64,000 nt of DNA from an uncultured Candidatus Saccharibacteria bacterium (GCA_964399865.1 CAYNRJ010000001.1:475984-539983); one strand, 5' to 3'. Numbered from the stretch's first letter, positions 5,118 to 60,317 are shown. Notes: generated by a model not told the origin, from the letters alone. Numbers and translations are program-made.

Positions 5118-5254
5118 ACGTAGTAAAAAACTTAGTCTTTAAATAATGATTTTAGTGTAGCACTGGATGAGACGTGCGAGCGGCCAACTTCTTTCCGTTG
5201 CATATCTCCGATTTCGTGGTTAAGTATTCGAAGTCAGAACGCCAGGAGGGCACG

Positions 5255-6037
5255 ATGACAGAAACGTTGAGCATTGAGGCTGCCGAGTCAGATCTGAAGC
5301 AGATTTGGGGACGCATCTACGGCCTCTTATATGGACGAATCGGGTCCAGCACGTTCGAGACGTGGTGTAGGTCCCTCGACTTCCACTCGCGCCAGGGTGC
5401 GACGGTATATTTGTCCGTCCCCACGCGATCGCTGCGTCATTGGATTGCCGGGCATTACGTTTCCGACCTCCTCGACTTGTGGAAGGAGTACGGGATCGAG
5501 AAAGTGGAGATAGTGCTGCGGGGCGTTGAACGCGCTCCCCCGGCGCCACAGATCGAAAAGCCGCGCCGAGTTCCGAGACGAGGAGTCATGTCGAGAGTGG
5601 CTCTAGAGGACCCGCCAAGCGAGCGAGAGGACACAGAAGTACGGGCACGGAAGCCCGCCCGGACTATCGCGAATCGGGACCTGCCGAAGCTCCCGCTCCT
5701 GCCGTCACTCGCGGCCGAGGAGATCGCCGGACTGCGGCAGAGGTACCCTGAGCGCTTTACGATCGATAACGTAGCGAACAAGGTGGCGGCCGCGTTCAAA
5801 ACGACGGAACTGGACATGATCCATCGCAACGAGCAGATCATGCTGCTCGCTCTTCGCATCACCATGCTGATCGCAGTCGAGTTACTGGGGATGGATAAGC
5901 GAGATGTTGCGGACGCACTCCGCATCAACTACATGCGCGTGGCATCTGGACTGAGCCACCTCGAGCGACAGATCACGGCGAATCCGCCCCTGCAGGACGT
6001 GATCGACCGACTGAAGGTGTTCATCCTCCGCGGCTAG
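5255..6037 (+). CDS. DnaA-like protein with an N-terminal domain-I-like region and a C-terminal domain-IV (DnaA box-binding HTH) but no AAA+ ATPase domain
   Basis: ORF 5174..6037 trimmed to MTETLS (strong SD 'aggaggg' 8 nt upstream). N-term 'FETWCRSLDF...VYLSVPTRSLRHWIAGHYVSDLLDLW' resembles DnaA_N. C-term 'FTIDNVANKVAAAF...IMLLALRITMLIAVELLGMDKRDVADALRINYMRVASGLSHLERQI' resembles DnaA domain IV. No Walker A/B. Local GC about 57-58 %. Confidence 0.55.
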   Translation: MTETLSIEAAESDLKQIWGRIYGLLYGRIGSSTFETWCRSLDFHSRQGATVYLSVPTRSLRHWIAGHYVSDLLDLWKEYGIEKVEIVLRGVERAPPAPQIEKPRRVPRRGVMSRVALEDPPSEREDTEVRARKPARTIANRDLPKLPLLPSLAAEEIAGLRQRYPERFTIDNVANKVAAAFKTTELDMIHRNEQIMLLALRITMLIAVELLGMDKRDVADALRINYMRVASGLSHLERQITANPPLQDVIDRLKVFILRG

Positions 6038-27516: not shown

Positions 27517-27587
27517 TGCGTCGAGTAAGCATACTAGCACACTCTTAAAGGACATTCCTCCCCTCTCCATGTCCTTTATGATGTCCT

Positions 27588-27989
27588 TTAGATCTCCCCA
27601 TCCAATACCTGTTCAAACAGGCGGCAGCGGGCCGTTTTAGTCGATTCAGACAGTATTACTCCGACCACATCGATTTGGTATTCTCGATCATCACCTGAAG
27701 CCTCCATATATAGGGTCGCCGTTCTGGCAACCTTCCTTAACTTTGACGCATGGACCAATTCCTCAGGCCTGTAGTCCATTTCACGTGAAATGTCGGGCAG
27801 AATTTCACGTGAAATAGCCTTTACCTCTATAAAACGCACCTGGTTATGTATCTCGGCTATTATATCAATCTCTCCCCAGGGCTTTCGGTAGTTCCTCTCA
27901 ATGATCTTGTATCCCTTACCCTCAAGGAACTGACAGGCAATGCTTTCACCTAAGTTGCCGACTTGCCTTCTGTCAGTCCCAACCTTCAT
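27588..27989 (-). CDS. YraN/UPF0102-family putative endonuclease
   Basis: 133 aa; 'GNLGESIACQFLEGKGYKIIERNYR...GEIDIIA...VRFIEVKA' matches the UPF0102 pattern; the CDS itself contains two copies of a 14-bp palindrome. Confidence 0.65.
   Translation of the reverse strand: MKVGTDRRQVGNLGESIACQFLEGKGYKIIERNYRKPWGEIDIIAEIHNQVRFIEVKAISREILPDISREMDYRPEELVHASKLRKVARTATLYMEASGDDREYQIDVVGVILSESTKTARCRLFEQVLDGEI
27778..27815. promoter_or_regulatory. Two copies of the perfect palindrome ATTTCACGTGAAAT (27778-27791 and 27802-27815) inside the yraN-like CDS
   Basis: Each encodes the ISRE(I/M) peptide in-frame; a third copy lies at 28049-28062 in the upstream intergenic region. Confidence 0.5.
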
Positions 27990-28048
27990 ACGTGCATTAT
28001 ATATGCGAAATATGCGGGTTAGCCGCAGATATGGGTACTATTGTGGCT

Positions 28049-28062
28049 ATTTCACGTGAAAT
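28049..28062. promoter_or_regulatory. Third copy of the ATTTCACGTGAAAT palindrome, about 60 bp upstream of the yraN-like start; candidate operator
   Basis: Exact 14-bp palindrome with a CACGTG core, in a 420-bp AT-rich ORF-free region. Confidence 0.45.
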
Positions 28063-28410
28063 GTAGCAAATATCGTAACTACGTAACATAAAATATTCAT
28101 GGACAAGGTAACGCCGCTCTGTGGGCATTATCTCTATATTTCAAGCCATTTTTCTAGGAATATACTCAAATCCCTATAGGATAAAGACACCTAAGGTACG
28201 TATTTTCATGTCCTTTATCCCCATATCCACAGACTTTTCCACAGTTTCTAAGGCTTTTTCATGGTTATTAGTTCCAAAGAGTCTGTTAGATCGGTAGTTC
28301 TCGAGACAATTCGTCCTTGATGTCCTTTAGAAAACAACTCCGGTGATTTGTCAATACTGGAACACAATTTATCCTTGACCGAAAGACTCGTGATGTACTA
28401 GGTTTGCATC

Positions 28411-29717: not shown

Positions 29718-31184
29718 ATGACTGAGAAGCTCTCGACTCCAAAAGAAATTCTCGAAATCCACACTGCACTTCTTACTGCAGGTTTTGAGTCATACCTTGT
29801 CGGAGGATGTGTGCGTGATCTCATTATTGGACGAGAGCCAAAAGATTGGGACCTAACGACCAATGCAAAGCCCGAAGAAATCCAGGCATTATTTGAAGAG
29901 ACTTTCTATGAAAACGATTACGGCACTGTCGGAGTCGTAACGAAAGCCACCGACCCAAGAATGAAAGTGGTGGAGATAACGCCGTACCGCATAGAAGGGA
30001 AGTACTCGAACGCGAGACATCCGGATGAAGTGCGTTTTAGCGATAATATCCGAGATGATCTGAAGCGACGTGATTTCACAATCAACGCGCTCGCGTATGC
30101 GCCAGACACGAATACTTTAGTAGACGAACATGGTGGTAAGGAAGATATCGCGAGAAAACTTGTAACTACTGTAGGGGAGGCGAGTGAGCGATTCAAAGAG
30201 GACGCACTTCGAATGTTACGTGCCGTGCGGCTTTCTGCGGAATTGGATTTTGCTATCGAAACAAAAACAGCAGCCGCGATCCATGAGTCGGCGTCTCTCC
30301 TCGAAAAAATATCTCGCGAACGAGTGCGCGATGAGTTTATCCGTATAATAGAAAGCCCGCGCCCAATGCAGGCGCTCTACATTTCGCAAAAGCTCGGCAT
30401 CTTAAAATTCATTATTCCTGAACTCGAAGAGGGAATTGGTTGTGCGCAAAACCAAGCGCATGCGTACGACGTGTTCGAACACCTGCTCCGCGCACTTCAA
30501 GGCGCTGCAGATAAAGAATGGTCACTAGAGGTGCGTATCGCAGCACTCCTCCACGATGTAGGAAAGCCAGCTACGAGACGGTGGTCTGACGAAAAGAAAG
30601 ATTGGACGTTCCACGGGCACGAAGTAGTGAGTGCACGCATGGCAAAAAAAATACTCACTGATCTAAGGATGCCGAAAGAAATGATAGAAAAAATTGAAGC
30701 ACTCATTCGGACACATATGTTCTTCTCTGATCCAGATACTGTGACCCTCTCTGCTGTCAGACGCACGATCCGAAACGTCAGTCCTGCAAACATAAAAGAT
30801 CTATTGAATTTGCGTATATGCGATCGCATAGGAACGGGACGACCCAAAGAACAACCATTTCGTCTCCGCAAATATATGTCCATGGTAGACGAGGCACTGC
30901 GCGATCCCGTTTCAGTTTCTATGCTCAAGATCGATGGAACTAGGCTTATGGAGTTGGGGGAGAAAGCGGGACCTCGTATCGGATGGATACTGCACGCTCT
31001 TCTTGAGGAAGTGCTGGATGACCCAAAAAAGAACACGGAAGACTATTTGGAGAAGATGGTTGGGGAATATTCAAAGCTCTCAGACCCCGAATTAAAGAAA
31101 CTTGGTGAGGCAGGGAAAGACCGCCGTACTGAAGAGGAAGAAGCTGCAGTCCGACTGCTTAGAGAAAAACACCACGTCTCCTAA
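29718..31184 (+). CDS. cca: CCA-adding tRNA nucleotidyltransferase (polymerase-beta head) with a C-terminal HD domain
   Basis: 'GGCVRDLIIGREPKDWDLTT', 'RRDFTINALA' nucleotidyltransferase motifs; HD motif 'LLHDVGKP'; immediately downstream of two CCA-less tRNA genes. Confidence 0.85.
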   Translation: MTEKLSTPKEILEIHTALLTAGFESYLVGGCVRDLIIGREPKDWDLTTNAKPEEIQALFEETFYENDYGTVGVVTKATDPRMKVVEITPYRIEGKYSNARHPDEVRFSDNIRDDLKRRDFTINALAYAPDTNTLVDEHGGKEDIARKLVTTVGEASERFKEDALRMLRAVRLSAELDFAIETKTAAAIHESASLLEKISRERVRDEFIRIIESPRPMQALYISQKLGILKFIIPELEEGIGCAQNQAHAYDVFEHLLRALQGAADKEWSLEVRIAALLHDVGKPATRRWSDEKKDWTFHGHEVVSARMAKKILTDLRMPKEMIEKIEALIRTHMFFSDPDTVTLSAVRRTIRNVSPANIKDLLNLRICDRIGTGRPKEQPFRLRKYMSMVDEALRDPVSVSMLKIDGTRLMELGEKAGPRIGWILHALLEEVLDDPKKNTEDYLEKMVGEYSKLSDPELKKLGEAGKDRRTEEEEAAVRLLREKHHVS

Positions 31185-31704
31185 CCAATGCAATAAAACA
31201 CCTAGGAGGCTCGCTTGGGCATGTGTTCAACGGGGCCTAGCGAGCACGGCGGTGCGAGCTCGAGGAAATTTTCAGCAGAAAATTATCCGTGCCCTGGGGA
31301 ATACATGCCCAAAAAGAGCCGAACTACAGCGACAAAAGAAAAAGGCCGTTCCCACGGATAGACACGGATTCAATGATAATCTGTGCCCGTCCGTAAGAAC
31401 GGCCTCTACTTAACGTTCGGTTTAGGATCTAACGTAGGCACTAAACTAAATTTTTGGGATGCTTTGCAATCCCTTGATTACGTAGTGTGCCTGTCGGATT
31501 CCCTGAGTCTTGCGACTCATCTTGCTCTTTTTTCTCTTTTGGCAAGAACGTAGTCCCTGCTTGATGAGTAAGAGGAAGAATTAAAGATCTAGAACGTGTA
31601 AGTTAGGGTCCAAAGCTGTGCTCTGAACTCCCTGTCCTATAGGATAGTTTACTAATGGACAATGTAAAGGACAGGGTGTGGATATCTTTCCCCTTACGTG
31701 TCCT

Positions 31705-40942: not shown

Positions 40943-42505
40943 GTGTCGAAAGAGCAAAAGATAAAATCAGGATTTGCTCGAGTCTTCGGAGCCCAACCAT
41001 CCTTACCAAAAGGGGTAGTCGTCACTGTTGAATGTGACATCGCAAAGGGTCTCCACGCTTTTACTATCGTTGGACTTCCAGATAAATCAGTGGAGGAGGC
41101 GAAAGATCGTATTTCATCTGCAATAAAAAATACTGAGAAACTTGATTCTCCGAAGAAAAGTAATAAGAAAATTGTCCTATCGCTCGCCCCGGCTGGACTC
41201 AAGAAAGAGGGCGCAGTTTTTGATCTACCGCTCGCGCTATCTTTCCTCCTCGCATCGGAACAAGTGAAATTTAACCCTGAGAAGAAGATGTTCGCAGGAG
41301 AACTTGGTCTAAATGGGGATGTGCGAGGCATTTTGGGAGTACTTTCTATAGCGGTCGCCGCGCGTGACCGCGGATTCACGGATATCTACGTGCCCGAGGA
41401 GAATGTTGAGGAGGCACTCCTTGTGAGCGAGCTGCGTGTGCACGCAGTCTCCTCGCTCGAGCATCTGATATCGGTCCTTAGTAAACCAGAGAAGGATACT
41501 TCTGCCCTAAAGATACTAAAAAGTAATCCGAGCTCTTCTAAAAATGAACAGCAAGATGATTTCGTCCTCGACGAGATCCGCGGACAGGAGTCTGCTAAGC
41601 GCGGCCTCATCATTGCTGCAGCAGGCGCTCACAATATTGCGCTTTACGGACCACCGGGAACGGGAAAGACATTGCTCGCTCGCGCGACTCGTTCAATTCT
41701 CCCCGATCTTTCCGAGGAAGACATGCTTGAAGTGACAAGTATTCATTCTCTCGCAGGAATTTTACAAGGCGGTCCCGTGTTCCGACCTCCATTCCGATCT
41801 CCACACCACACGTCCTCGTACGCATCACTTATCGGAGGCGGGTCGGCATCGCCACGTCCGGGGGAAGCGACTCTCGCACATCGAGGAGTTCTCTTTGCTG
41901 ACGAATTCCCGGAATTTCATAGAGATGTTATCAACGCCCTTCGGGAGCCACTCGAAGACCGTGTCGTTTCAATTTCCAGATCAAAAGGTTCTGCAGTGTT
42001 TCCCGCAAATTTTATGCTAATTGCCGCACTTAATCCGTGCCCGTGCGGATTTTGGGGTACCCCAAGATGCGAATGCATGCCACATCTTGTAGAAAAATAT
42101 CGACGCAAGATCTCGGGACCAGTCGCAGATCGAATTGATATGTGGGTTTCAGTTGGGGAGATGCCTCCCGAAGCACTTCGAGGCATAAAGAGAACAACGA
42201 ACGAGACCGCACTCGCTCGTCGGGCTATTCGCTCTGCGCGTGATTTGCAGCGCAAGCGATACGCAGGGGTATCCGGGGTATCGACGAACGCAGATATGCG
42301 CCCAAAGCACATTGAGCTATTCGCAAATCTATCAGCAAAAGCAGAAGATGCACTTGTTGGGGCTGCAAAGGCAATGAAACTATCGGCTCGCGGCTATCAC
42401 CGCACCATTAAACTGGCGCGAACAATCGCGGACCTCTCGGAGAGCGTAAAAATTGAGCCTTCGCACATGCTCGAAGCACTCCAGTATCGCGCACGTGAGC
42501 TATAA
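40943..42505 (+). CDS. Mg-chelatase-like AAA+ ATPase (YifB/ComM family)
   Basis: 520 aa; Lon-like N-terminal domain, 'LYGPPGTGKTLLA' Walker A, 'VLFADEFPEF' Walker B, C-terminal ChlI domain. Confidence 0.8.
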   Translation: MSKEQKIKSGFARVFGAQPSLPKGVVVTVECDIAKGLHAFTIVGLPDKSVEEAKDRISSAIKNTEKLDSPKKSNKKIVLSLAPAGLKKEGAVFDLPLALSFLLASEQVKFNPEKKMFAGELGLNGDVRGILGVLSIAVAARDRGFTDIYVPEENVEEALLVSELRVHAVSSLEHLISVLSKPEKDTSALKILKSNPSSSKNEQQDDFVLDEIRGQESAKRGLIIAAAGAHNIALYGPPGTGKTLLARATRSILPDLSEEDMLEVTSIHSLAGILQGGPVFRPPFRSPHHTSSYASLIGGGSASPRPGEATLAHRGVLFADEFPEFHRDVINALREPLEDRVVSISRSKGSAVFPANFMLIAALNPCPCGFWGTPRCECMPHLVEKYRRKISGPVADRIDMWVSVGEMPPEALRGIKRTTNETALARRAIRSARDLQRKRYAGVSGVSTNADMRPKHIELFANLSAKAEDALVGAAKAMKLSARGYHRTIKLARTIADLSESVKIEPSHMLEALQYRAREL

Positions 42506-48234: not shown

Positions 48235-49125
48235 ATGAAATTACTTCGTGCTCATTTCATTCTTTTTCTCATTGGAGTTACCGCACTACTCCTTGTGATC
48301 GGTGCGTTCGCACTAAAAGAATATTCGCCAGCTCAAAATACACCTAGGACAATCGCATGGGGAGGCCTTGGAGGCACCCCGTATTATCCACTTTCGGGCG
48401 AAAGAGCGATCGAAAGTAATCCTGCAGAGGAGAATATCTACAGCTCAATTCAAAGCGGGCCGCCGTTCTATTATTCAACGACTAACTCGGAAGCGGCGGA
48501 TGAGGAAGATGACACGTTCGACGTCGACGCGTTTCTTGCATATCTCAAGGGAGAAACGAGGACATCAGAAACTGCGGTCGAGGAGGAAAAACCGCTTTCG
48601 TTTCTTGAGAATCCATACTCATTTATCACAAATGGGGTCTCCTTCCCGAGTAGCTCCCTTACGAAAGAACGCACACCAATACAGCAGGCTTTATATGAGT
48701 ACGGAAATAAGGCTGGAAAGATCATTCAGACATTTGAAGACTCGAATCAAAACATGGCTGATGTAGTGCAGGCACAATCTGAAGATCCGGAAGACCCTCT
48801 TAAGGTCGCTGCCCTTATAAAACTAGCGGACTCTCTAGCAGATGTAGGGGTTTCACTAGAAGAACTCTCCTCTGTTCCAGCAGAAGCGGCCAATCAGAAC
48901 GCCAAACTTGCGACAAGCTATAAAGATATGGGTGCAAAACTTGCGCTCGTGCCTAACGCCATGACCGAAGACAGTAGGGTAGAGACAATGCTTACCTATA
49001 ATGCTGCCGCCGAATCGTTCGTCACAAATTACGTGGCTATCGTCACTCTTTTCTCGATCATGGAGGTCACATTTTCTCCTGATGAGCCGGGTAGTGTGTT
49101 CACTTTCACGATGACAGGGTTTTAA
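48235..49125 (+). CDS. Bitopic membrane protein (N-terminal TM plus ~260-aa extracytoplasmic domain); first gene of the T4SS-like operon, possibly VirB8-like
   Basis: 'MKLLRAHFILFLIGVTALLLVIGAFALK' TM anchor; the architecture (short N-terminus, 1 TM, ~230-260 aa domain) matches VirB8-type proteins, but no sequence signature was recognised. Confidence 0.5.
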   Translation: MKLLRAHFILFLIGVTALLLVIGAFALKEYSPAQNTPRTIAWGGLGGTPYYPLSGERAIESNPAEENIYSSIQSGPPFYYSTTNSEAADEEDDTFDVDAFLAYLKGETRTSETAVEEEKPLSFLENPYSFITNGVSFPSSSLTKERTPIQQALYEYGNKAGKIIQTFEDSNQNMADVVQAQSEDPEDPLKVAALIKLADSLADVGVSLEELSSVPAEAANQNAKLATSYKDMGAKLALVPNAMTEDSRVETMLTYNAAAESFVTNYVAIVTLFSIMEVTFSPDEPGSVFTFTMTGF

Positions 49126-49185
49126 GCCTCGACTGTCCACTCATTGTCCCCACGAAATCCCCAGGAAGCGGTTATACTTTATGCA

Positions 49186-50001
49186 ATGAAAGTAAGCGCG
49201 TTGAAGGGCGTGAGTTTTTCGCGTATGGCGATAACTGCAACACTGTCGATCGCAGCTGTTATTGGAGTTTCTGCGTGGCAACTAACAGCCCCTCTCCGGA
49301 GCGGGGGTGAAGAACTCGCTACCGGGAGTAACGATTCCACTATCACGATGGGTCGGACTGGAGATCCGGATCGTCAGTTTGATTGGCAGAAAAGTCTTGA
49401 GGGAATCTCGTCCGACGATCCAGATGGACTTTCAAATATCGGTGAAAATGTTGTTGAAACTTTGGTTGGTTCATACGTCGCGCTAAAAGACGCGGGAGTG
49501 TATACGCCAGAACAAGGGGCACAAATAGCTGGTGTAATTGCAACAGATCTCAAGGCCGATATTTCATTCCGTCTCTATGACACTGACGACATTAAGACCG
49601 ACACAAGCACTTCTTTCACTCGTTCGCTCGCATATCGAAGCGATATGCGCATCGCCCTCGAGCCTCTTTTGGAAAATCCTACGTATGAACTCGAGATACT
49701 CGGAGGATATATGGAGACTAAGGACCCAAAGTATCTCGCTGAACTGGAGAACATGGTCCGAAATTACAATGTTGCTATCGAGAATGCCGCACAAGTAGTC
49801 GTTCCGAAAGACGCGATCACATACCATATCAGTGTTCTGAACGCACTCTCTGAATTCGGCGCGACACTCGCACAAATGGTTAAGCACATTGACGATCCCT
49901 TCGCTTCTGCGGCGCTCCTTCGGACATTCAATGGCGCAGAGGCAAAAATGTTTACTTCGTTTGATGAGCTCGCAGACTATTTCCGTAAATCTACCTCATG
50001 A
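49186..50001 (+). CDS. Bitopic membrane protein, distant paralog-like of the upstream gene
   Basis: ORF 49144..50001 trimmed to MKVSALKG; TM 'MAITATLSIAAVIGVSAW'; same architecture as the 48235 gene. Confidence 0.5.
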   Translation: MKVSALKGVSFSRMAITATLSIAAVIGVSAWQLTAPLRSGGEELATGSNDSTITMGRTGDPDRQFDWQKSLEGISSDDPDGLSNIGENVVETLVGSYVALKDAGVYTPEQGAQIAGVIATDLKADISFRLYDTDDIKTDTSTSFTRSLAYRSDMRIALEPLLENPTYELEILGGYMETKDPKYLAELENMVRNYNVAIENAAQVVVPKDAITYHISVLNALSEFGATLAQMVKHIDDPFASAALLRTFNGAEAKMFTSFDELADYFRKSTS

Positions 50002-51593
50002 AAACAAGCTCCCTCATTTTCATACCGTTTAAGTTTGCTATCGCAACAATTACTCTGTTTCTCTTACTGACCTCTTTCGCTCAAGCTCAAACAGATACCT
50101 CAACCACCACTGCAGGATTATCGAGCTCAGGTATATTCGACTGCAACAGTAAAGCCGGAGCTGAGGCGATGAGCAGTGTCGGAACAAAAAGCACGATTCA
50201 AAGCTTATATGTCCCAGTTTCTGACGCAGGAGTAACCTTAAACACCGGATCTTTGGTCTACAAGGAATGTGTTCTCGACCCTATAAACACGCGCATGCGA
50301 GAGAACGCTGCTTTCTCGCACGTTCAACTCGGCATAAAGGCGTTTAACAAGGGGGCTGATGGTGAACCAATGTTTATAAAAGATTACATCGCGAAAGTTT
50401 CGGAGCGCAGCGACAAAACATTCCTACGTACATTTGAAGAAGGGGAGCTTGATACACTCAATCCAGCCTTTAAGGATGAAGTTAAGCGCGCGATCGCTGA
50501 AGATTATAAAACTCAGACCCGTGAGCCGAACAAGGTACTAGAATGTTCGTACAAAGGCGATCTCGCAAAAGTATACGCAGGACAACCGGAAGATATTTGG
50601 GGAGCTATCATGGCCATTGCAGAGCCAGCATGTAATCCGGTTGGAGCTTACAATCTCGCGCAAGAATATATTATAGACAATATCGCATCAGATAAGGAAG
50701 AGATGCTCTTCCGCCTTAATAACAGCAACGCCATCAAAGATGTCCAAACATACAACGAGGAGACCGGGCGATACGAGACCCTCACTCCAGGTATCATCGT
50801 TGCTGAAAATGTTCAGCAACTTATAACATCCGGCTTCCGGCAACTTGAGAACGCCGACGAGATAGGTCAAATGGTTGATGCGCTATATTCTGGCCTCTCC
50901 ACACAAGTAGTTTCCGATACTCGAGGACTCGCGGGAGTAACCGAAGGATTCGCTGGCCAGCCTTCTTATCTCGACCAAATTGGTGACACGCTCCGCAAAA
51001 ACCTTCGCGATGCAGCGGTTAATATAGCTTTGGGAATTCTAAAAGGCGCGAAGCAAACCGAGATTACCTATTTCAATGCATTGAATTCGATTGCACTTAC
51101 CCTAACGGCAACGATAGGGGATCTTCGCCAGGCAGAAGCACTATGTTGGGCAGAAGTAGTACCAAAAGCTCAAGTCTATGCAAGTGCAAATAATATTCAA
51201 ATAACCGTTGCTACTTCAACCCAATTTTCACAAGCGGTTATCAATGCACAGATAACATCTCTCGCTTCAACAACGATAACGGATATACGAAAGAGTGAGA
51301 CCGCTCTCTCCCTCATAGATCATTTAATAGAGGGCATTACGAACACGACTTCTCCGGATGCCCAGCGTGTAGCTCTTCAACAGTTAGATTCTCTCGTGGC
51401 ACAAGGAGCCCTACACGGAGAATACGATGCCCAGCAGGCAGTGAAGCGAAGAGATGAGATAAAGCCGGCAATGGAAAATCTCGTGGAAGATACGGTTGTA
51501 GCATGGGCTGATTCTGCTGACGTAAATGTCGGCTGGTGTAACGTCAATAATCCTGCGGTCGCCCAAAAATGGGTCGAGGAGTGGAGAAACTGA
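49998..51593 (+). CDS. Secreted protein (signal peptide), unknown function, T4SS-like operon
   Basis: 'MKTSSLIFIPFKFAIATITLFLLLTSFAQA' signal peptide; 531 aa; 4-nt overlap with the upstream gene. Confidence 0.55.
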   Translation: MKTSSLIFIPFKFAIATITLFLLLTSFAQAQTDTSTTTAGLSSSGIFDCNSKAGAEAMSSVGTKSTIQSLYVPVSDAGVTLNTGSLVYKECVLDPINTRMRENAAFSHVQLGIKAFNKGADGEPMFIKDYIAKVSERSDKTFLRTFEEGELDTLNPAFKDEVKRAIAEDYKTQTREPNKVLECSYKGDLAKVYAGQPEDIWGAIMAIAEPACNPVGAYNLAQEYIIDNIASDKEEMLFRLNNSNAIKDVQTYNEETGRYETLTPGIIVAENVQQLITSGFRQLENADEIGQMVDALYSGLSTQVVSDTRGLAGVTEGFAGQPSYLDQIGDTLRKNLRDAAVNIALGILKGAKQTEITYFNALNSIALTLTATIGDLRQAEALCWAEVVPKAQVYASANNIQITVATSTQFSQAVINAQITSLASTTITDIRKSETALSLIDHLIEGITNTTSPDAQRVALQQLDSLVAQGALHGEYDAQQAVKRRDEIKPAMENLVEDTVVAWADSADVNVGWCNVNNPAVAQKWVEEWRN

Positions 51594-51601
51594 TCTTGCA
51601 T

Positions 51602-54142
51602 ATGGAATACCTAAAACGAATGCTAGGACATCATAAAATAGGAATACTTGCGTCACTCTTCATCGCAATCGTGTTCTCCCCCTTTGTATTCAGTAATAAC
51701 AGCTTCGAGGTAAGCAGCGCGCTGGCAGCAACTCCTGAGGAAATCGCCGCAAGCGAAGGATTTCAAGCAATAATGGCAAACGTTCCGGCAGAAAATCTTG
51801 CCGCCTTCAACGGGTGCTTACAAAACCCTCCAAGTGGTCCATCGATCAATGAAAAACCTAAAGAGGGGCTCGCACTTTTTGCGAGCTATTGTTATGACCT
51901 CACTGTGGGCGAGCTACCTGACGAGTTAGTGCCGGGTTTTAAGCCACCCGAAGGCTATGTGGGCGGATGTGGCCTCAACTTTGGTTGTTATTGGAAAAAA
52001 CTCGTTGCAACCATTGCTTGGATACCGTCTGGACCAAGCGCATGGCTCCTTACTACTGTAGGGCAGTTCTTCAATTACCTCGTCGATCATACTATTATTG
52101 ACTTCAAGGGGACCTTAGAACAAATGGGGGAGAGTATTGATAATGCATGGACTGCATTCCGAGATATTGCGAACATTGTCATCATCGGAATGTTTGTATT
52201 CATTGCTCTCTCTCTAATCCTCGGGCTCAAGGAATACGGCGAGCGGAAAATGATAGCGCGCGTACTCATTGTTGCGGTGTTAATCAACTTCAGCTTACTT
52301 TTCACAAAGTTAATTATCGACGCTTCACACTTTACTGCGTATCAGTTCTACAATGCAGCTGGGAATATTGGTGGCCCCGTTGCCGACGAGGCCAGAGCTG
52401 CGGTTGACATTGAAGACGAAACAATTCCTGCGGCGGAGCCAGGTATCGCAGGTCAATTCTTAGCTGCTATGAGTATTACCCGGGTTGGGGAGATACATAA
52501 CATACTTTTTCAGATGCAGCAGAATGGTAATGGGATGTGGAACACAATACTCTTTGGCTTTTTTATGGGCGTTATGTTTCTCCTTGCTGCACTTGTGCTC
52601 TTATACGGCTGTTTCTTACTGATTGCACGGGGGCTACTCTTAGTATTTCTGATGATGACGGCACCTCTTGCTTTCGCGAGTTGGCTCATCCCCAAATTCG
52701 CAGGAGATGGTTGGAGCAAATGGTGGGATTCACTCTTACGCACTGCGATATTTGCACCTCTTCTGATGATTTTCTTGTGGGCTTCTCTCACTATAGCGAC
52801 TCAAATCAACGAGGCAGGCGAGGGACTGGGAGCGCTGATCGATCATCCTGAAAACGGCATCGGTATCGGGGCTCTTTTCAACTATGTCTTCGTGCTTGGG
52901 TTGCTTTTCATGTCCATAAAACTTGCAAGCAAATTCTCCGGCACAATTGCAGGATTCAGCGTCGCTGCAATGGCTACTGCCGCACCAATCACTCTCGGAT
53001 CGCGAGCGCTCGCAGCTCCACTCCGCGGTATCGGAGGTAAATATGCAACCAAATATCAAGAAAGTCGTATGGATCAAGCAAAGGCCGCTAGAAGGAACGT
53101 CGGGGTCGCTACTGGACTTAGAACGAACGCGTTGAAAGCTGCGCACGATTTCCGAGAAGCTGGTCTGCATGGCTTTGCAGATAGGGAACAGGCGGAGGCT
53201 AAGAAACAACAAAAGATTGCGGAGGAACAGAAGAAAATTGCGGCAATCAAAACAAAACGCGCGATGCGAGGTGCGACAGTTGCCGGGAACAAGATGAATC
53301 TTATGAATACTGAGACCGCTAAGAAGGTGCTCGGGGCAGTGGGGGTTACAGGGTTCATGGCTGGAGCGACGCCAAAGGAAGTACAGAGTTATCACGGAAA
53401 AATTGAAGAGAGAGCCAAGGCGGCGGAGAAAATTGCATCAAAACTTGCTCCAAAGCAAGAAGAAATCGATAAAGCGCGGGATCTTGCGGGAGACAGAATG
53501 AAAGAACAGCGCAAAATTGAAGAGGCACAACTGGAGGCAACAAGAAGGGTGGCTGAGGAGGAGGCCAATAACACAAAGGCTCTTGAGTATTTGCCTGAGC
53601 AATTGGAAACTGCCATTCGAGAATCTACACGAGTTAAGGCAGACGCTGCACGAAATAAGACTGCGATCGATGCCAGTAGGAGGGCAGGCACTATAAGCGC
53701 AGATGAACATCAACGACAATTAAGGATCGAGAATGATCGTGTTAAAGCCGCAGACGCCGCCGTAAAAACTGTTAAAGATCGCATTGACGTTATCGATCAG
53801 CCCGTGAAAGATATTGCAAAAAATATCGAAAAGTTCCGTGGAGAAACAAAAGGTGCAATCGAGAAAGCCAAACATGAAGGGGGTCAGGCTGTTGTAGAGA
53901 GCGGAGCCGGGGTAGCCGAAGTAATCGGTCGACGGTACGGAGGTACTCTGACTCGTATAGCTGGAGCCCTTACTGGAGCCAATGCTCACGTCGCTCACGA
54001 AACGAGAGAAATGTACCTTAAGAATCGCGGTGCGATGAATAAATTAAAGGATATTCTTAAGGGTGCAGGTGTTACGGAGGGAGAAGCTGCGCATGGAGGG
54101 GGCTCAGCACCTGCAGGGGGCGGGGGAGGCGATCATCACTAA
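51602..54142 (+). CDS. Polytopic membrane protein, VirB6/TrbL-like, with a long Lys/Ala/Glu-rich coiled-coil C-terminal tail
   Basis: ORF 51569..54142 (start 51569 or 51602); at least 8 hydrophobic helices in residues ~200-480; an extracytoplasmic Cys-containing loop (GGCGLNFGCYWKK); C-terminal ~350 aa of KAA/EEQ coiled-coil ending GGGSAPAGGGGGDHH. Sits two genes upstream of the VirB3-like + VirB4 pair, as in Gram-positive T4SS. Confidence 0.55.
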   Translation: MEYLKRMLGHHKIGILASLFIAIVFSPFVFSNNSFEVSSALAATPEEIAASEGFQAIMANVPAENLAAFNGCLQNPPSGPSINEKPKEGLALFASYCYDLTVGELPDELVPGFKPPEGYVGGCGLNFGCYWKKLVATIAWIPSGPSAWLLTTVGQFFNYLVDHTIIDFKGTLEQMGESIDNAWTAFRDIANIVIIGMFVFIALSLILGLKEYGERKMIARVLIVAVLINFSLLFTKLIIDASHFTAYQFYNAAGNIGGPVADEARAAVDIEDETIPAAEPGIAGQFLAAMSITRVGEIHNILFQMQQNGNGMWNTILFGFFMGVMFLLAALVLLYGCFLLIARGLLLVFLMMTAPLAFASWLIPKFAGDGWSKWWDSLLRTAIFAPLLMIFLWASLTIATQINEAGEGLGALIDHPENGIGIGALFNYVFVLGLLFMSIKLASKFSGTIAGFSVAAMATAAPITLGSRALAAPLRGIGGKYATKYQESRMDQAKAARRNVGVATGLRTNALKAAHDFREAGLHGFADREQAEAKKQQKIAEEQKKIAAIKTKRAMRGATVAGNKMNLMNTETAKKVLGAVGVTGFMAGATPKEVQSYHGKIEERAKAAEKIASKLAPKQEEIDKARDLAGDRMKEQRKIEEAQLEATRRVAEEEANNTKALEYLPEQLETAIRESTRVKADAARNKTAIDASRRAGTISADEHQRQLRIENDRVKAADAAVKTVKDRIDVIDQPVKDIAKNIEKFRGETKGAIEKAKHEGGQAVVESGAGVAEVIGRRYGGTLTRIAGALTGANAHVAHETREMYLKNRGAMNKLKDILKGAGVTEGEAAHGGGSAPAGGGGGDHH

Positions 54143-54147
54143 TAGGT

Positions 54148-54723
54148 ATGGATACAAAAATGACTCAAGAAGAATTAAATCAGAAATTGCGCGAGCGATT
54201 TCAAGAGATTCCTAAAGTACTCCAAGAGGCTATTACCTCTGCAAACGTAGAGAAACAGTTACGAGAACTCGCCACAAAACATAAGTTGCATGTGGACATG
54301 TGGCAATTACTCGAGAATGAGGTCATCGTTACACTCCTCGGTCTTCAGCCAGCAGATGACCTCGCCGCCAACCTCCAAAACGACCTCGGCCTACCCAAAG
54401 AAGCATCGATTGCGCTCGCAAGAGATGTATCTACGATAGTTTTCGCGCCAGTAAGACAAGAGCTCGAGCGGACACTGGAACATCCTGAGGCAAAGTCCGA
54501 AGAGGAGAGTGACGTTGATACCGTAAGGACACAAATACTTGAGCAAAAGCCTACACCAACTAGTACTTCACTGCCTCCGTTGGTAAAACCAGCGACCCCA
54601 CCCCCACAACCACCCACTCAAAAGATTGAAAGAGGTCCTGCGTCGGGCGCATATGTGCCCGGAGAAGTATCGAGCGCGCGAAAATCGATCGTGGATGATC
54701 CGTACAGAGAAGCGCCGCAATGA
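54148..54723 (+). CDS. Hypothetical protein with a Pro-rich C-terminal region, T4SS-like operon
   Basis: 191 aa; no TM; 'PPLVKPATPPPQPPTQ'. Confidence 0.45.
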   Translation: MDTKMTQEELNQKLRERFQEIPKVLQEAITSANVEKQLRELATKHKLHVDMWQLLENEVIVTLLGLQPADDLAANLQNDLGLPKEASIALARDVSTIVFAPVRQELERTLEHPEAKSEEESDVDTVRTQILEQKPTPTSTSLPPLVKPATPPPQPPTQKIERGPASGAYVPGEVSSARKSIVDDPYREAPQ

Positions 54724-54852
54724 AAAACTAATTTAATTCACTCTGGCGTCAATACGCTAAGAGCTTGCGTGTTATAATTCTGCCACGGGAGACTGGAAAC
54801 TAGCGCTCGTTTTCTCCTCGAAGCTAGCTGCTAGTCCCTGGCAGCTATTTAT

Positions 54853-55353
54853 ATGCAATTTCAGGTACCACAATTCATCGAGGTGGAGGATAAAATCTTC
54901 GGTCCTCTCACATTCAAGCAATTTGTGTATGTCGCAGGAGGAGCCGGGGCAGCCTATCTTTTTTGGCGAACCCTCCCATTCTTTTTTTCCGTCCCCCTCA
55001 TCATGGGGATTGGAGCCCTTGCCGCAAGCTTAGCCTTCTTTAAATACAACGGGCGCCCTTTTATTCTCGCGATGGAGCATGGCTTCTACTATCTTGTACG
55101 AACAAAACTATATTTGTGGAACAACGCGGCAAAAACTGCAAAACCTAGGAAATTAGCGACGAAAGCGACACTACCTACTAGTCAGGTATATGTGCCTACA
55201 CTTTCACAAAGCAAATTACACGAACTGGCATGGAGTTTGGACATTAAAGAACGTATTGCAGGAGGCACCGTTTCAAGCGAAGAGCGAGAAGCGGCCGCCC
55301 CGACAGATAGCATCGTCGCTCCAATACGCACCGCCCGCGATGCGAGAGTATAA
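54853..55353 (+). CDS. Small two-TM protein, VirB3/PrgI-like (directly precedes the VirB4 homolog)
   Basis: 166 aa; 'FKQFVYVAGGAGAAYLFWRTLPFFFSVPLIMGIGALAASLAFF' hairpin of two helices; position and topology as for VirB3-family proteins. Confidence 0.5.
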   Translation: MQFQVPQFIEVEDKIFGPLTFKQFVYVAGGAGAAYLFWRTLPFFFSVPLIMGIGALAASLAFFKYNGRPFILAMEHGFYYLVRTKLYLWNNAAKTAKPRKLATKATLPTSQVYVPTLSQSKLHELAWSLDIKERIAGGTVSSEEREAAAPTDSIVAPIRTARDARV

Positions 55354-55358
55354 AATCT

Positions 55359-56045
55359 ATGCCACCAGGACTTGAAAACTTACGCGACAGAAAGAAATCC
55401 ACTCAAGATTTCGTGCCCGTGCGTGAAGTGCGGGATGGAGTCGTCGTACTTAAGGATGGAGGATTACGCGCAATTCTTCTCGCATCTTCTCTTAACTTCG
55501 CACTGAAATCAGAAGACGAACAGACTGCGTTCATCACGCAATTCCAAAGCCTTCTAAACTCACTGGATTTTTCTGTGCAGATTTTCATAGAGTCTCGCAT
55601 GCTCGATATAAGACCTTACATTGCAACTCTCGAGGAAGCATATAAAAAGCAGCTCGACGATCTGATGCGAATCCAGATCCGTGAATATATAGAATTCATC
55701 AAGAGCTTTACTGAAGCTGCAAATGTCATGACAAAGAACTTCTTCGTCGTCGTGCCGTATTCCGGCGGTCCACAGATCGGCAAGAGTGGGGGAGGGCCCT
55801 CACTCCCATGGAGCAAAAAAAAGAACAGCACTGAGGAGGCGAACAAGAGCTTCGAAGAGCAGGTGACTCAGCTCGAACAAAGAGTATCTGTCGTGCAGCA
55901 AGGTCTGATCCGCACAGGTGTCCGCACTGTTCAGTTAGGAACCGAGGAGGCAATCGAGCTTCTCTACAAAATGTTCAACCCTGGCGAAGAAGGGAAACCG
56001 ATGTCACTTAACAATACCGAAGAGGCGCCCGCGACCAGCCAATAA
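55359..56045 (+). CDS. VirB4/TraC/TrsE-family protein, N-terminal portion (ends at an in-frame TAA)
   Basis: 'QDFVPVREVRDGVVVLKDGGLRAILLASSLNFALKSEDEQ' matches the conserved N-terminal region of VirB4/TrsE-type ATPases; the ORF stops at TAA 56043-56045 and the next ORF starts 3 nt later in the same frame. Confidence 0.65.
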   Translation: MPPGLENLRDRKKSTQDFVPVREVRDGVVVLKDGGLRAILLASSLNFALKSEDEQTAFITQFQSLLNSLDFSVQIFIESRMLDIRPYIATLEEAYKKQLDDLMRIQIREYIEFIKSFTEAANVMTKNFFVVVPYSGGPQIGKSGGGPSLPWSKKKNSTEEANKSFEEQVTQLEQRVSVVQQGLIRTGVRTVQLGTEEAIELLYKMFNPGEEGKPMSLNNTEEAPATSQ

Positions 56046-56048
56046 TGT

Positions 56049-57998
56049 ATGGGATTTAAAGACTTACTGCCATTTGGAAAGAAACCAACGCCGCCCGAGG
56101 CGCGAGTTCTTCCTGTGTTACCTGAGGAAATATACGAAACGGGAGTTCTTGACCTCCAGGATGTCATCGCACCGCACGCACTCCGTGTTAATTCACGTGA
56201 GCTCGACCTCGGCGAGAAGATCGCGCGAACTTTTTTCGTGATCTCTTACCCCCGCTTCCTCACGACAGGATGGTTCGCCCCGATCATCAACATGGACAAG
56301 GTCTTGGATATTGCCATCTACGTCCACCCGATGGACACAAATGAGATGCTTCGAAAGTTCCAGAAAAAAGTGGCTGAGGTGCAGAGTCAGATATCGACAC
56401 GTGAAGAGAAGGGGATGGTGCGAGACCCTATGCTCGATACTGCATACAGCGACTTGGAAACTTTGCGTGACTCTCTGCAGCAGGCACAGGAGCGTATTTT
56501 CGAAGTGGGATTGTACTTAACAATTTACGGTAATACCCGCGAGGAAATCGATAAGGTGGAATCTGAGGTGCGTTCAATTCTCGAATCGCGTCTCGTATAC
56601 ATTCGTCCTGCACTATTCCAACAGGAGAGTGGGTTCAGAAGTGTCTTGCCGCTCGCTACCGATGAGCTTGATGTCCATACAAAACTCAACTCCGCTCCTC
56701 TCTCTTCGATCTTTCCATTCATATCATTCGACCTTACGAGCGATCGCGGCATCCTCTATGGCGTCAACCGCCACAATTCTTCTCTCATTCTCTTCGATCG
56801 TTTCTCGATGGAAAACTACAACTCGGTCACCTTCGCAAAATCCGGTGCCGGCAAGTCGTACATGACCAAGCTCGAGATATTGCGATCTCTCATGTTCGAA
56901 ACCGAGGTTATCGTAATCGACCCAGAACGCGAGTACGAATATCTCGCAGAAACAGTGGGCGGGCGATACTTCAACATCTCACTCTCCTCTGAGCACCACA
57001 TAAATCCATTCGATCTTCCTGTCCCTCGCGAGGATGAAAACCCATCAGATATTTTGCGCAGTAACATCATTACTCTCGTAGGACTTTTCCGCATTATGCT
57101 CGGGGGCCTTACGCCTGAAGAAGATGCGATCATTGATAAAGCCATAACCGAAACCTACGCATTGAAAGACATCACACCGGACGCGAACTTTGCCGCAATA
57201 GAGCCACCGCTTCTCTCTGACTTTGAACTGGTACTTTCCGGACTAGAAGGATCGGAGTCGCTCGTCGCTCGTCTTTCTAAATATACGAAAGGAACTTGGT
57301 CGGGATTCATGAATAGACCAACGAACGTCGACATGAATAAGAGATTGATTGTTTTCTCGGTCCGCGACATGGAGGATGACTTGAAACCAATTGCGATGTA
57401 CATCATCACACATCACATTTGGAATGCGGTTAGGAAAGAATTGCGTAAACGTCTTCTCGTCATCGATGAGGCGTGGTGGATGATGCGTTCAGAAGATACC
57501 GCATCATTTCTCTATTCCGTTGCTAAACGAGGACGTAAATACTATCTCGGAATTTCAACCATTACCCAAGACGTATCCGACTTCCTCAATTCGCCGTATG
57601 GAGTTCCGATGATAACTAACTCTTCTATCCAAATACTTCTACGCCAATCTCCGACATCCGTTGACCTCGTGCAATCAACATTTAAATTATCCGATGAGGA
57701 AAAATACCTCCTGCTTGAATCCGATGTGGGGGAGGGAATATTCTTTGCGGGCCTTAAACACGTAGCGGTAAAAGTTATCGCATCATACACAGAAGATCAA
57801 ATCATCACGTCCGATCCATCTCAGGTTCTCGCGATCAGGAAAGCTAAGAGGGATCTTGAAGATGCAAATTCAGGTGAAGCACCCCCGCTTCCAGAGGTCA
57901 AAAAAATCCCTGAAATGCCGGATCGCCCAGTTGCGCCCCAAACCCCAGCCGTTCCACCCGCACCAAACATCGCGCCACCCAAAGACATGGCAATATGA
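56049..57998 (+). CDS. VirB4/TraC/TrsE-family T4SS ATPase, central and ATPase portion
   Basis: 649 aa; Walker A 'TFAKSGAGKSYMTKLEI', Walker B 'RLLVIDEAWWMM', 'GISTITQDVSDF' helicase-like motif; in frame with and contiguous to the 55359 ORF, the two together being about 877 aa (typical VirB4 length). Confidence 0.75.
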   Translation: MGFKDLLPFGKKPTPPEARVLPVLPEEIYETGVLDLQDVIAPHALRVNSRELDLGEKIARTFFVISYPRFLTTGWFAPIINMDKVLDIAIYVHPMDTNEMLRKFQKKVAEVQSQISTREEKGMVRDPMLDTAYSDLETLRDSLQQAQERIFEVGLYLTIYGNTREEIDKVESEVRSILESRLVYIRPALFQQESGFRSVLPLATDELDVHTKLNSAPLSSIFPFISFDLTSDRGILYGVNRHNSSLILFDRFSMENYNSVTFAKSGAGKSYMTKLEILRSLMFETEVIVIDPEREYEYLAETVGGRYFNISLSSEHHINPFDLPVPREDENPSDILRSNIITLVGLFRIMLGGLTPEEDAIIDKAITETYALKDITPDANFAAIEPPLLSDFELVLSGLEGSESLVARLSKYTKGTWSGFMNRPTNVDMNKRLIVFSVRDMEDDLKPIAMYIITHHIWNAVRKELRKRLLVIDEAWWMMRSEDTASFLYSVAKRGRKYYLGISTITQDVSDFLNSPYGVPMITNSSIQILLRQSPTSVDLVQSTFKLSDEEKYLLLESDVGEGIFFAGLKHVAVKVIASYTEDQIITSDPSQVLAIRKAKRDLEDANSGEAPPLPEVKKIPEMPDRPVAPQTPAVPPAPNIAPPKDMAI

Positions 57999-59059
57999 AA
58001 AAGGCAGCAGCGCCATTCCTATTTCTTGCGCTTATTTTTTTCTCACTGCTAGTGCCCAGCACTCCTGCCCACGCTCAATTAGTGTTCCCCGGGACAACAC
58101 CAGATCTCGCTCTTGAAGCAGTGCCCGAAAACCCTCGACCGAATTCAAACATTACTCTTCGGATAAGAAGTGTGCTGCTCGACCTCACCCAAAGCGAGAT
58201 CACGTGGTACGTGAATGGCACTGTTACAAGTACTGGTATTGGGATTACTGAAACTAGCGTAGCAACGGGAGCGCTGGGAACAGAGACCCGGGTGCGTGTT
58301 GAAGCAATTGGAGAAGCAGGGAGCGCTTTTGCCGTTGGGGTATTTCGTCCTACTGACATAGATCTTCTGTGGGAGGCTGATTCGTATGTGCCCCCATTTT
58401 ATCGAGGTCGCGCGCTTCCATCTGCGGGAAGTACCGTTCGCTTATTTGCGGTACCTCGATTTACGAGAGTCGGATCTACTTCCTTTTTACCATCGAGTGA
58501 ACTCATGTATACCTGGAAAAGGAACGATCAAACTATTCCAAAGGCATCTGGCTTCGGAAAAGACACGGTCCAAATTGAAACGTCCATTATATCGAGCGGC
58601 GACGTTATATCCGTAGAAATAGCAACCGCAGACGGGATACTGGAAGGATCTGCTTCGGTACGGTTACCTTCGGTAGAACCTTCTCTCGTGTTATACGAAA
58701 ATCATCCAGTCTTCGGGGTTCTGTATCACCGTGGATTGCAGAGCCCTGCCTCAGTCACTGAGTCCGAAACAACATTTATAGCTGTTCCGTATTTCGCGCC
58801 TACTCGAAATCCTGATAACGGGTCACTCATTTATAAATGGCGGGTTGGTAACTCATCTATACCAAGCAGTTTTACGAAACCTAGCGCAATCACAATCAAC
58901 GCAGAGGGAACAAATGGTGTAGCTCTCATACAGCTCGCCGTTACACACGCGTCGAATTTCTTACTGAACATACAGAACGCATGGGCCGTGACTCTCGCTG
59001 GAACAGACACATCAACCACTGTGAGTCCTTTCACGGACCCTTTCACAAGTGGTGAATAA
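57995..59059 (+). CDS. Secreted beta-rich protein (signal peptide, Ig-like repeats), T4SS-like operon
   Basis: 'MKKAAAPFLFLALIFFSLLVPSTPAHA' signal peptide; 4-nt overlap with the VirB4 stop. Confidence 0.55.
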   Translation: MKKAAAPFLFLALIFFSLLVPSTPAHAQLVFPGTTPDLALEAVPENPRPNSNITLRIRSVLLDLTQSEITWYVNGTVTSTGIGITETSVATGALGTETRVRVEAIGEAGSAFAVGVFRPTDIDLLWEADSYVPPFYRGRALPSAGSTVRLFAVPRFTRVGSTSFLPSSELMYTWKRNDQTIPKASGFGKDTVQIETSIISSGDVISVEIATADGILEGSASVRLPSVEPSLVLYENHPVFGVLYHRGLQSPASVTESETTFIAVPYFAPTRNPDNGSLIYKWRVGNSSIPSSFTKPSAITINAEGTNGVALIQLAVTHASNFLLNIQNAWAVTLAGTDTSTTVSPFTDPFTSGE

Positions 59060-60317
59060 TACTATGCGTATACGTATACCGACATCACTCCTCCGTTACA
59101 CTCTGATACTTCTTGTTGTTTTACTATTTGGCATCCTCTTGTGGTGGTATTTCTTCCTCGGAGCCAAACAGGATTCACTGGAAGCGACTGATGACGGAAG
59201 GGGAGCAGGAGTAGAGGCGCCTTCTTTCGGAAATGCGATCGGGAGCACGTACGGCAATATTGTTTCAAGCATAGGAGCGGCCATATCAAACACGAGCGAG
59301 GAAGAGCCTGCCGCTCCACAAACAACCCCGCCTTTATGGCATGCGGCGAAAAGCCCTGTGGCAGGCGCAAGCTTTATTTTAAATGGAACTACGACCGCAA
59401 TCCGCTTCGTAGAACGAGGTACGGGATACGTTCTGGAGGCAAATCCTGAAACAGGGGAGCTTACTCGCATCACGAACACCCTCATACCACGCGTATACGA
59501 AGCTTACGTAGGAGCTAATGGAAGTCTTATTTTGCGAAGCCTGGATGAGGCTGACAATATCGTAACGAGTGCCGGACAAATAGTTGCAACAACTTCTGAA
59601 GATGTCGCACCAAAGCCCCTAGCTTTGCGTCAATTACCCTTAAACATTCGTACGATCGCTCTGCACCCCGAAGGAGAAGAGGTTTTTTATATTGAACCCG
59701 GATACTCTGTGGAAGACGAGTATTCCATTGTTCGGGCCGCATGGAACGGCACCGCGGTTAAACGTATCGGTACGGTGGGTATTTCGGGTTGGCAAGCAAA
59801 GTGGCTCTCCGACGATCGAATAATATTGACACAGAATGCAGGCGGCACATCGAATTATGCATATGAATTAGCGGCAAACGGATCACTCGTGCGCCTCGCA
59901 AATCCCGCAGGCGGACTAGTAGTACTACCTCGTCCAAACTCTAAAGCGTTACTCTATGGCAGTGCCTCGAACGGCTTCCTCCTTTCAGTTCTCACAGATG
60001 CAAACGCGGATCCCAAGACACTTTCTATCCGCACCACCGCTGATAAGTGCGTATGGTCGCCTAGCGCTGTTCTAATTGTGTACTGCGCAGTCCCACAAAC
60101 TCTACCAGGAGCAGATTTCCTAACCGCTAGAGCGCAGGGGACAGAACATACTGCCGACACCTGGTGGAAAATCGATATACGAACAGGTAGAGCAGAAATT
60201 TTACCCGTCGAAACTATGCCTCAAGTGGATGTCGAGAATCCTATAATGGATCCGTCTGGGAAATACCTACTATTTACGAACAGTCGCGATAAATCGCTTT
60301 GGTTGGTACGTATCTAA
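59049..60317 (+). CDS. Membrane-anchored protein with a beta-propeller-like (TolB-like) extracytoplasmic domain
   Basis: TM 'LLRYTLILLVVLLFGILLWWYFF'; repeated beta-strand blades ('GTGYVLEANPETGELTRITN', 'GKYLLFTNSRDKSLWLVRI'); the start may be at 59064. Confidence 0.5.
   Translation: MVNNTMRIRIPTSLLRYTLILLVVLLFGILLWWYFFLGAKQDSLEATDDGRGAGVEAPSFGNAIGSTYGNIVSSIGAAISNTSEEEPAAPQTTPPLWHAAKSPVAGASFILNGTTTAIRFVERGTGYVLEANPETGELTRITNTLIPRVYEAYVGANGSLILRSLDEADNIVTSAGQIVATTSEDVAPKPLALRQLPLNIRTIALHPEGEEVFYIEPGYSVEDEYSIVRAAWNGTAVKRIGTVGISGWQAKWLSDDRIILTQNAGGTSNYAYELAANGSLVRLANPAGGLVVLPRPNSKALLYGSASNGFLLSVLTDANADPKTLSIRTTADKCVWSPSAVLIVYCAVPQTLPGADFLTARAQGTEHTADTWWKIDIRTGRAEILPVETMPQVDVENPIMDPSGKYLLFTNSRDKSLWLVRI

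Follow-up and report, generated by a model that had tools for sequence, protein, structure and literature searches.

Dimers of the bacterial partition protein ParB load onto DNA at parS, a centromere-like sequence that is part of textbook biology. Intragenic auxiliary operators are known from lac, gal and purR. In the Bacillota, a paralog of ParB, Noc, reportedly binds a site of its own, the NBS ATTTCCCGGGAAAT. The chromosomal parS consensus, TGTTNCACGTGAAACA, is present in most bacterial chromosomes (PMC7022226), and a survey detected a parB on the chromosome in 84% of bacterial orders (PMC12704722). The optimal parS of B. subtilis is TGTTTCACGTGAAACA; natural sites are partially degenerate, and one of those in B. 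subtilis lies in the parB coding sequence itself (PMC4333373). In S. pneumoniae, a parS site at -1.6 degrees lies near comCDE, and spreading of ParB lowers expression of the competence genes (PMC4488948). Here we analyse palindromes of closely similar sequence in and upstream of yraN, in a 64-kb stretch of DNA that we call the window.

An exact-match scan of the whole window found the 14-bp palindrome ATTTCACGTGAAAT three times, each time at yraN. The features at this locus are:

27588-27989, minus strand: yraN, encoding a UPF0102 / PD-(D/E)xK nuclease family protein of 133 aa (Pfam PF02021 UPF0102, E=3e-21)
27778-27791, no strand assigned: parS-like site 1, an exact match inside yraN, read on the minus strand as the codons I-S-R-E-M
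27779-27790: the 12-bp core TTTCACGTGAAA of site 1
27802-27815, no strand assigned: parS-like site 2, an exact match inside yraN, codons I-S-R-E-I
28049-28062, no strand assigned: parS-like site 3, an exact match, intergenic, ending 59 nt upstream of the yraN ATG
27996-28001, minus strand: a TATAAT hexamer, read from the sequence, 6 nt upstream of the yraN ATG

The chance expectation of the 14-mer in 64 kb is 0.29 copies (the mean of shuffled sequences), and three or more copies occurred in none of 100 shuffles. Allowing up to two mismatches added zero further matches within the window, and the 12-bp core at up to three mismatches stayed at chance level in the remainder of it. The two intragenic copies are in frame, reading A-ISRE-ILPD-ISRE-M, and lie 24 bp apart centre to centre, with site 2 placed straight after the catalytic E-V-K motif of yraN. 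A sequence-only reading had reported three perfect palindromes, two in yraN and one about 60 bp before its start codon. Their positions, frame and spacing were given accurately, and the last distance is 59 nt from an ATG that the ortholog alignment supports. The third palindrome can also be read as Y-ISRE-I in a 43-aa ORF at 27997-28128 (minus strand). This ORF is most likely spurious, because the palindrome yields xSREx in any open frame.

The closest relatives of this yraN belong to Candidatus Kaiserbacteria, and the identical protein is found on a 613-kb contig. An alignment of 29 orthologs (64-77% identity) showed strong conservation of the peptide [V/I]SRE-x4-[V/I]SREMDYRPEE. Aligned to PDB 3FOV, the only solved UPF0102 structure, YraN is covered as far as E-V-K-A, immediately ahead of the site that comes first in the protein. 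AlphaFold2 models YraN with a mean pLDDT of 85; residues 61-74 are a loop in which no secondary structure is predicted, and pLDDT is 58 over residues 61-70. In protein order, the first of the two sites, I59-E62, runs from the end of the E-V-K beta-strand into the loop, and the second, I66-E69, is within the loop. A segment of such low predicted order is a plausible place for a peptide imposed by the DNA.

Upstream of the gene, the TATAAT hexamer is possibly the -10 box of a leaderless yraN mRNA, and site 3 would then lie outside the transcript. Hexamers resembling TATAAT or TATACT occur 6-10 nt ahead of the ATG in many orthologous loci. A consensus promoter scan returned another -10 candidate for yraN, at 28156-28127.

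Conservation and coding of the sites

To follow the sites across relatives, we assembled 80 related Paceibacterota loci from species-representative genomes (1.22 Mb; 39-74% YraN protein identity). Across 81 loci and 1.29 Mb, the core TTTCACGTGAAA at up to one mismatch gave 238 sites where 2.8 were expected, and 230 of the 238 fell in the interval from -2 kb to +1 kb around the yraN start, the flanks to 10 kb being empty. Every locus had at least one site, 73 had at least two and 49 at least three. An intragenic yraN site was present in 70 of the 81 loci, two such sites in 38, and in most loci the core was kept at the position homologous to site 1. An upstream copy (up to one mismatch, within 200 bp of yraN) was found in 66 of 80 loci, at distances to the predicted ATG that range from -13 to -152; further sites lay in spacers, up to 2.4 kb away from yraN. 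A generic repeat, which the sequence-only reading had named as an outcome that would undo its proposal, was rejected: the window holds no other match at up to two mismatches, and the motif is missing from the flanks of the 80 relatives' loci.

Local codon usage predicts TCA-CGT-GAA for 1.3% of SRE tripeptides, whereas 84 of the 100 in the yraN loop are written this way. The residue before the tripeptide varies (V/I/G/F/L), yet its codon ended in TT in 86 of 100 cases, with valine written GTT in 47 of 52. The residue after it varies too (S/M/I/N/T/K), yet its codon began with A in 92 of 100 cases, with serine written AGY in 19 of 22. Because codon ends are fixed next to variable residues, it is the amino acids that bend to preserve the DNA string TTTCACGTGAAA. 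The neighbouring cca gene provided an internal control in the window, and some relatives carry cores of their own in it:

29718-31184, plus strand: cca, encoding the CCA-adding enzyme, divergent from yraN
Relatives with cores in cca: L017, L035, L037, L042, L052-L054, L057, L059-L061, L064, L065, L070, L073, L074, L077, L080

The window cca codes the peptide K-ISRE-R as AAA ATA TCT CGC GAA CGA, without the palindrome. The cca genes of relatives hold 27 cores (18 of 71 genes), at positions that are non-homologous between lineages, with 26 of the 27 giving xSREx in translation. Sites thus seem to have been gained more than once in the neighbourhood of yraN.

Conservation of [V/I]SRE-x4-[V/I]SREM among orthologs is also what one would see if the protein needed ISRE twice and its palindromic coding were accidental. 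We give such coding constraint or chance a negligible probability. Synonymous positions are fixed (84% against 1.3%), neighbouring residues change in ways that preserve the DNA, the intergenic copy is conserved as well, and the ISRER of the window cca is written with other codons. Coding constraint as the only cause is refuted by the codon counts, the conserved intergenic copy and the cca control, and the same three lines show that the sites are maintained by selection at the level of the DNA, independent of coding. Conservation of the peptide with synonymous scrambling of the palindrome, against which the sequence-only reading had set its proposal, was not seen: orthologs keep the DNA itself. 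Its suggestion that one sequence serves both as protein-coding DNA and as a DNA target holds for the intragenic copies, which do both.

Selection on the nucleotides might also act through pairing. The two intragenic copies could form a 14-bp mRNA hairpin, or one of them could pair with the upstream copy; the constraint would then lie on RNA or on a DNA cruciform and would serve to control translation or stability. The yraN mRNA segment 27765-27830 (minus strand) does fold at -26.1 kcal/mol (z = -5.6 against shuffles). However, the hairpin requires a pair of intragenic copies, present in just 38 of the 81 loci, and a compensated symmetric change was found in 1 of 44 sites with two mismatches, which is about chance. 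Copies also lie on other transcripts (cca, spacers), the upstream copy is probably outside a leaderless transcript, and an Rfam scan gave only tRNA, with no match at the sites. We regard a pairing constraint as extremely improbable. The hairpin at 27765-27830 is a side effect of two parS sites lying 24 bp apart and is not conserved as such, though it might influence translation of yraN.

Likeness to parS and its possible reader

The three palindromes are very probably chromosomal parS sites, the centromere read by ParB. All three match the central 12 bp of parS exactly. In distant loci (L049-L080), the symmetrised consensus of the sites outside the yraN ORF is TGTTTCACGTGAAACA, canonical parS. 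As a positive control we took loci around real parB genes, obtained from a metagenome scan with a ParB alignment that returned only non-CPR loci; these 80 loci carried 61 cores where 1.75 were expected, and almost all of the cores had tg..ca flanks.

The outer positions are less regular. The window sites match 12-13 of the 16 positions of the canonical 16-mer, with A/T at +-7 instead of G/C. In Kaiserbacteria-like loci the 12-bp core is equally strict and positions +-7/8 are relaxed, which accounts for the window arms ATTTC...GAAAT. Outside the yraN ORF, position +-7 is unconstrained in this group (A 31, G 31, T 30, C 8%), whereas G/C accounts for 69% at this position in the distant group. Since this position is not G/C in the window and is unconstrained in its group, the reader protein would have a relaxed or altered outer specificity. 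A further point against parS is that linkage to a single gene across a class-level clade is tighter than mere nearness to the origin predicts.

A palindrome of this kind, with a central CG, could also be the operator of a dedicated transcription factor other than ParB, with cooperative binding or looping between promoter and intragenic sites controlling yraN. The upstream copy in 66 of 80 loci and the absence of the motif from the rest of the 64-kb window would fit such control, and lac, gal and purR supply precedents for auxiliary operators inside genes. We nevertheless consider it improbable. In the wider clade the sequence is that of canonical parS, and the site keeps no constant distance from the ATG (-13 to -152) or from the putative -10 box. 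Sites occur in the cca coding sequence, at lineage-dependent positions, and in spacers; no conserved regulator gene is adjacent in relatives' loci. The spacing of intragenic pairs tracks codons, not helical phase: 30 pairs are spaced by 24 bp and the others by 27, 15 or 39 bp, all multiples of three.

These observations divide the functional claims of the sequence-only reading. Its proposal of a dimeric-factor site stands to this extent: the palindrome is functional and belongs to a type that dimeric helix-turn-helix proteins bind; the part that made it a promoter operator falls with the variable position and the parS core. Autoregulation of the nuclease finds no support, given that same core, the range of distances and the copies in cca and spacers. 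Nor does the spacing of about two helical turns, on which cooperativity or looping had been proposed, indicate helical phasing: 24 bp is a distance of 8 codons, and the other spacings also occur.

As a further alternative, YraN might recognise or cleave the palindrome in its own gene, in autoregulation or self-targeting. The motif accompanies yraN at every locus, and the PD-(D/E)xK fold is common to restriction enzymes. By contrast, the available part of a preprint describes YraN as a single-stranded DNA endonuclease that acts with ComM on transformation D-loops, and in that part sequence specificity goes unmentioned (bioRxiv 10.1101/2024.02.06.579203). Across bacteria, moreover, this sequence serves as the ParB site, around parB genes too, and the association with yraN is explicable by sites frozen into a conserved gene near oriC. 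A YraN that acts on its own gene is thus an unnecessary assumption, and we hold it to be very improbable. The window also encodes ComM, a Mg-chelatase-like helicase, at 40943-42505 (plus strand), 13 kb from yraN.

If the palindromes are parS, the ParB of this organism would bind them, and a Kaiserbacteria ParB that binds ATTTCACGTGAAAT or GTTTCACGTGAAAC is implied. From parS, ParB would spread or slide, organise the origin region and recruit SMC. On this view the sites would serve chromosome segregation, and they might also influence the expression of yraN. Paceibacterota, including Ca. Kaiserbacteria, would keep a compact cluster of two to five sites at one locus, one upstream of yraN, one or two inside it and others often in cca or spacers. 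The intragenic sites would use the sole open reading suited to a loop, xTT-TCA-CGT-GAA-Axx, that is, [V/I]-S-R-E-x.

We searched for the genes of such a system. A motif search with the regular expressions GERRxRA and KGGxGKT found no ParB or ParA in the window or in relatives' loci, and queries of Spo0J (B. subtilis, T. thermophilus) and Soj run in phmmer gave no match among all ORFs of the window and loci. No homolog of either protein was thus detected in the 64-kb window or within +-10 kb of yraN in the 80 relatives (1.22 Mb). Pfam annotation around dnaA in two relatives (L083, L085) was also without ParB or ParA. These negative results are the weakest side of the parS explanation. A literature search for ParB or parS in Patescibacteria returned no paper. 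As indirect evidence, the strict conservation of a canonical centromere sequence points to a canonical reader.

Predicted distance to oriC and neighbouring motifs

In three relatives (L014, L057, L062), dnaA lies 5.5-9 kb from yraN. The distance is about 43 kb in CAZUVH010000001.1, and in the complete Kaiserbacteria chromosome CP066682.1 the two genes, at about 147.4 kb (yraN) and 87 kb (dnaA), are 60 kb or 7% apart. Gene order in CP066682.1 and CAZUVH010000001.1 runs T4SS-like cluster, jag, yidC, rnpA, (rpmH), dnaA, dnaN. The window has its own T4SS-like cluster at 48235-63514 (plus strand), with a TraG-like P-loop ATPase, a T4SS pilin-like protein of 1071 aa and several ORFs without a Pfam match. 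The contig bearing the last protein of the window (L087) continues with jag, yidC and rnpA, in the same order that precedes rpmH/dnaA in L083 and L085. This synteny of T4SS-like cluster, jag, yidC and rnpA therefore predicts dnaA/oriC at about 65-67 kb in window coordinates. Some 38 kb would then separate the sites from the origin, which is 6% of the length of the 613-kb contig, and we infer that the cluster is origin-proximal. Elsewhere in the window, the only Pfam match of a 287-aa protein (5174-6037, plus strand) is the DnaA N-terminal domain; it is without an AAA+ or DNA-binding domain.

The spacers between dnaA and dnaN were located in two relatives:

L083, 11348-11566: dnaA-dnaN spacer
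L085, 11366-11620: dnaA-dnaN spacer

Both spacers end in ...CCACACC-TAGTAGTAATAATAG-TTTTTATAT, where TAGTAGTAATAATAG is a run of TAG/TAA triplets beside an AT-rich stretch; as a pattern, the end reads ...CCACACC(A/G)C-TAGTAGTAATA(ATA)G-...TTTTATAT. We take this arrangement to be a DnaA box followed by DnaA-trios and an AT-rich unwinding element. The dnaA-dnaN spacer is likely to be the oriC of Kaiserbacteria.

Several other motifs surround the parS-like sites in the window:

28215-28243, plus strand: three DnaA-box-like 9-mers, TTATCCCCA, ATATCCACA and TTTTCCACA, about 160 bp from site 3
27546-27555 (plus strand), 27569-27578 (minus strand) and 27581-27590 (minus strand): the 10-mer TAAAGGACAT, at and past the yraN stop codon
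28208-28217 and 28320-28329, both minus strand: the 10-mer TAAAGGACAT, making five exact copies in the window that together bracket yraN
Relatives with TAAGTAAC just upstream of the upstream parS: L006, L014, L024, L025, L031, L038, L042, L043, L046

DnaA boxes at up to one mismatch are a feature of the locus across the clade. In 81 loci, the 500 bp upstream of yraN hold 168 of them, a density of 4.2 per kb where chance would give 0.21, and the typical arrangement is two or three in one orientation, 8-12 or 20 bp apart. Further DnaA-box-like 9-mers are found in the window at 29052 and 31677, both on the minus strand. An oriC in the spacer upstream of yraN was considered, on account of the conserved DnaA-box cluster and of GC-skew, and then put aside. 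A left/right skew difference around yraN appears in 46 of 48 loci but is confounded by divergent genes, the cumulative skew of the window shows no switch at 28 kb, and a trio-like element is found at dnaA-dnaN. Given that element in the relatives' spacers, the cluster at 28215-28243 is probably not oriC.

The second motif is densest at the other end of the gene. AAAGGACAT at up to one mismatch occurs at 6.6 per kb just past the yraN stop, in 67 of 81 loci, and at 2.4-3.4 per kb upstream of yraN, in both orientations and with variants that fit WAWRGGACA. A plain terminator is unlikely for TAAAGGACAT/AAAGGACAT, because the sequence is conserved and not its pairing alone. Near copies of TAAAGGACAT are present at 31665 (plus strand) and 31698 (minus strand). 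The third motif, TAAGTAAC, at times in the form of the palindrome GTTACTWAGTAAC, sits directly next to the upstream parS. Its enrichment there is about 100-fold: the 300 bp ahead of yraN contain 30 copies, from 26 loci, and the other 1.26 Mb contain 15. In the window, 28075-28087 reads GTAACTACGTAAC.

Together, parS, the three-DnaA-box cluster, TAAAGGACAT and TAAGTAAC could form a conserved module on both sides of yraN across Paceibacterota, a chromosome-organising or replication-control locus apart from oriC, similar to DnaA-box clusters or datA-like sites, at which loading of ParB gates expression of yraN. We put this forward tentatively, as a rather unlikely reading. If it were true, DNA uptake and recombination would be coupled to the cell cycle through YraN, and the SRE...SRE loop of the enzyme would be dictated by the centromere and not by what the enzyme needs.

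Comparison with known systems

The cluster is best explained as an element of known type, parS, that is previously undescribed for this lineage in the literature searched. On that explanation, it would give a first picture of where the centromere lies in a large, uncultured and genome-reduced bacterial lineage. A centromere anchored in a conserved gene would be a clear case of a DNA-binding site that constrains codons and even neighbouring amino acids. The sites might also serve as a handle for finding origin regions in fragmentary CPR assemblies, and, because their outer positions are relaxed, as a testable system for ParB specificity. We further hypothesise a tie between ParB and a gene of natural transformation, in organisms presumed to rely on taking up DNA.

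Chromosomal parS/ParABS systems of B. subtilis, Caulobacter, Streptomyces and other bacteria share the 12-bp core TTTCACGTGAAA with this locus, and the full 16-bp consensus appears in distant Paceibacterota. Those systems likewise have clustered copies a few percent of the chromosome from dnaA/oriC. They differ in that the window and its close relatives lack G/C and T/A at positions +-7/8, and in that the cluster here sits at yraN/cca and not beside parAB, with no parB in the sequence examined.

The Noc-binding site is also a 14-bp palindrome with the outer arms ATTTC...GAAAT. The centre here is CACGTG, however, and not CCCGGG; Noc is said to be limited to Bacillota, and the clade consensus here is that of parS. 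The lac O2, gal OI and purR operators likewise pair palindromic intragenic sites with a site near the promoter. Each of those operators has its dedicated repressor and keeps a fixed arrangement around one promoter, whereas the geometry here is variable and the sequence is that of a centromere.

The parS of S. pneumoniae near comCDE resembles this locus in lying close to a natural-transformation gene, which here is yraN, reported to encode a D-loop nuclease. The pneumococcal site is 5 kb from its operon, whereas sites here lie inside the gene. In the intragenic parS of B. subtilis spo0J (parB), as here, the site is itself coding sequence (PMC4333373). The host gene here is instead yraN, often with two sites 24 bp apart in one loop, and the arrangement is kept over a class-level clade, where it visibly shapes the codons and the neighbouring residues.
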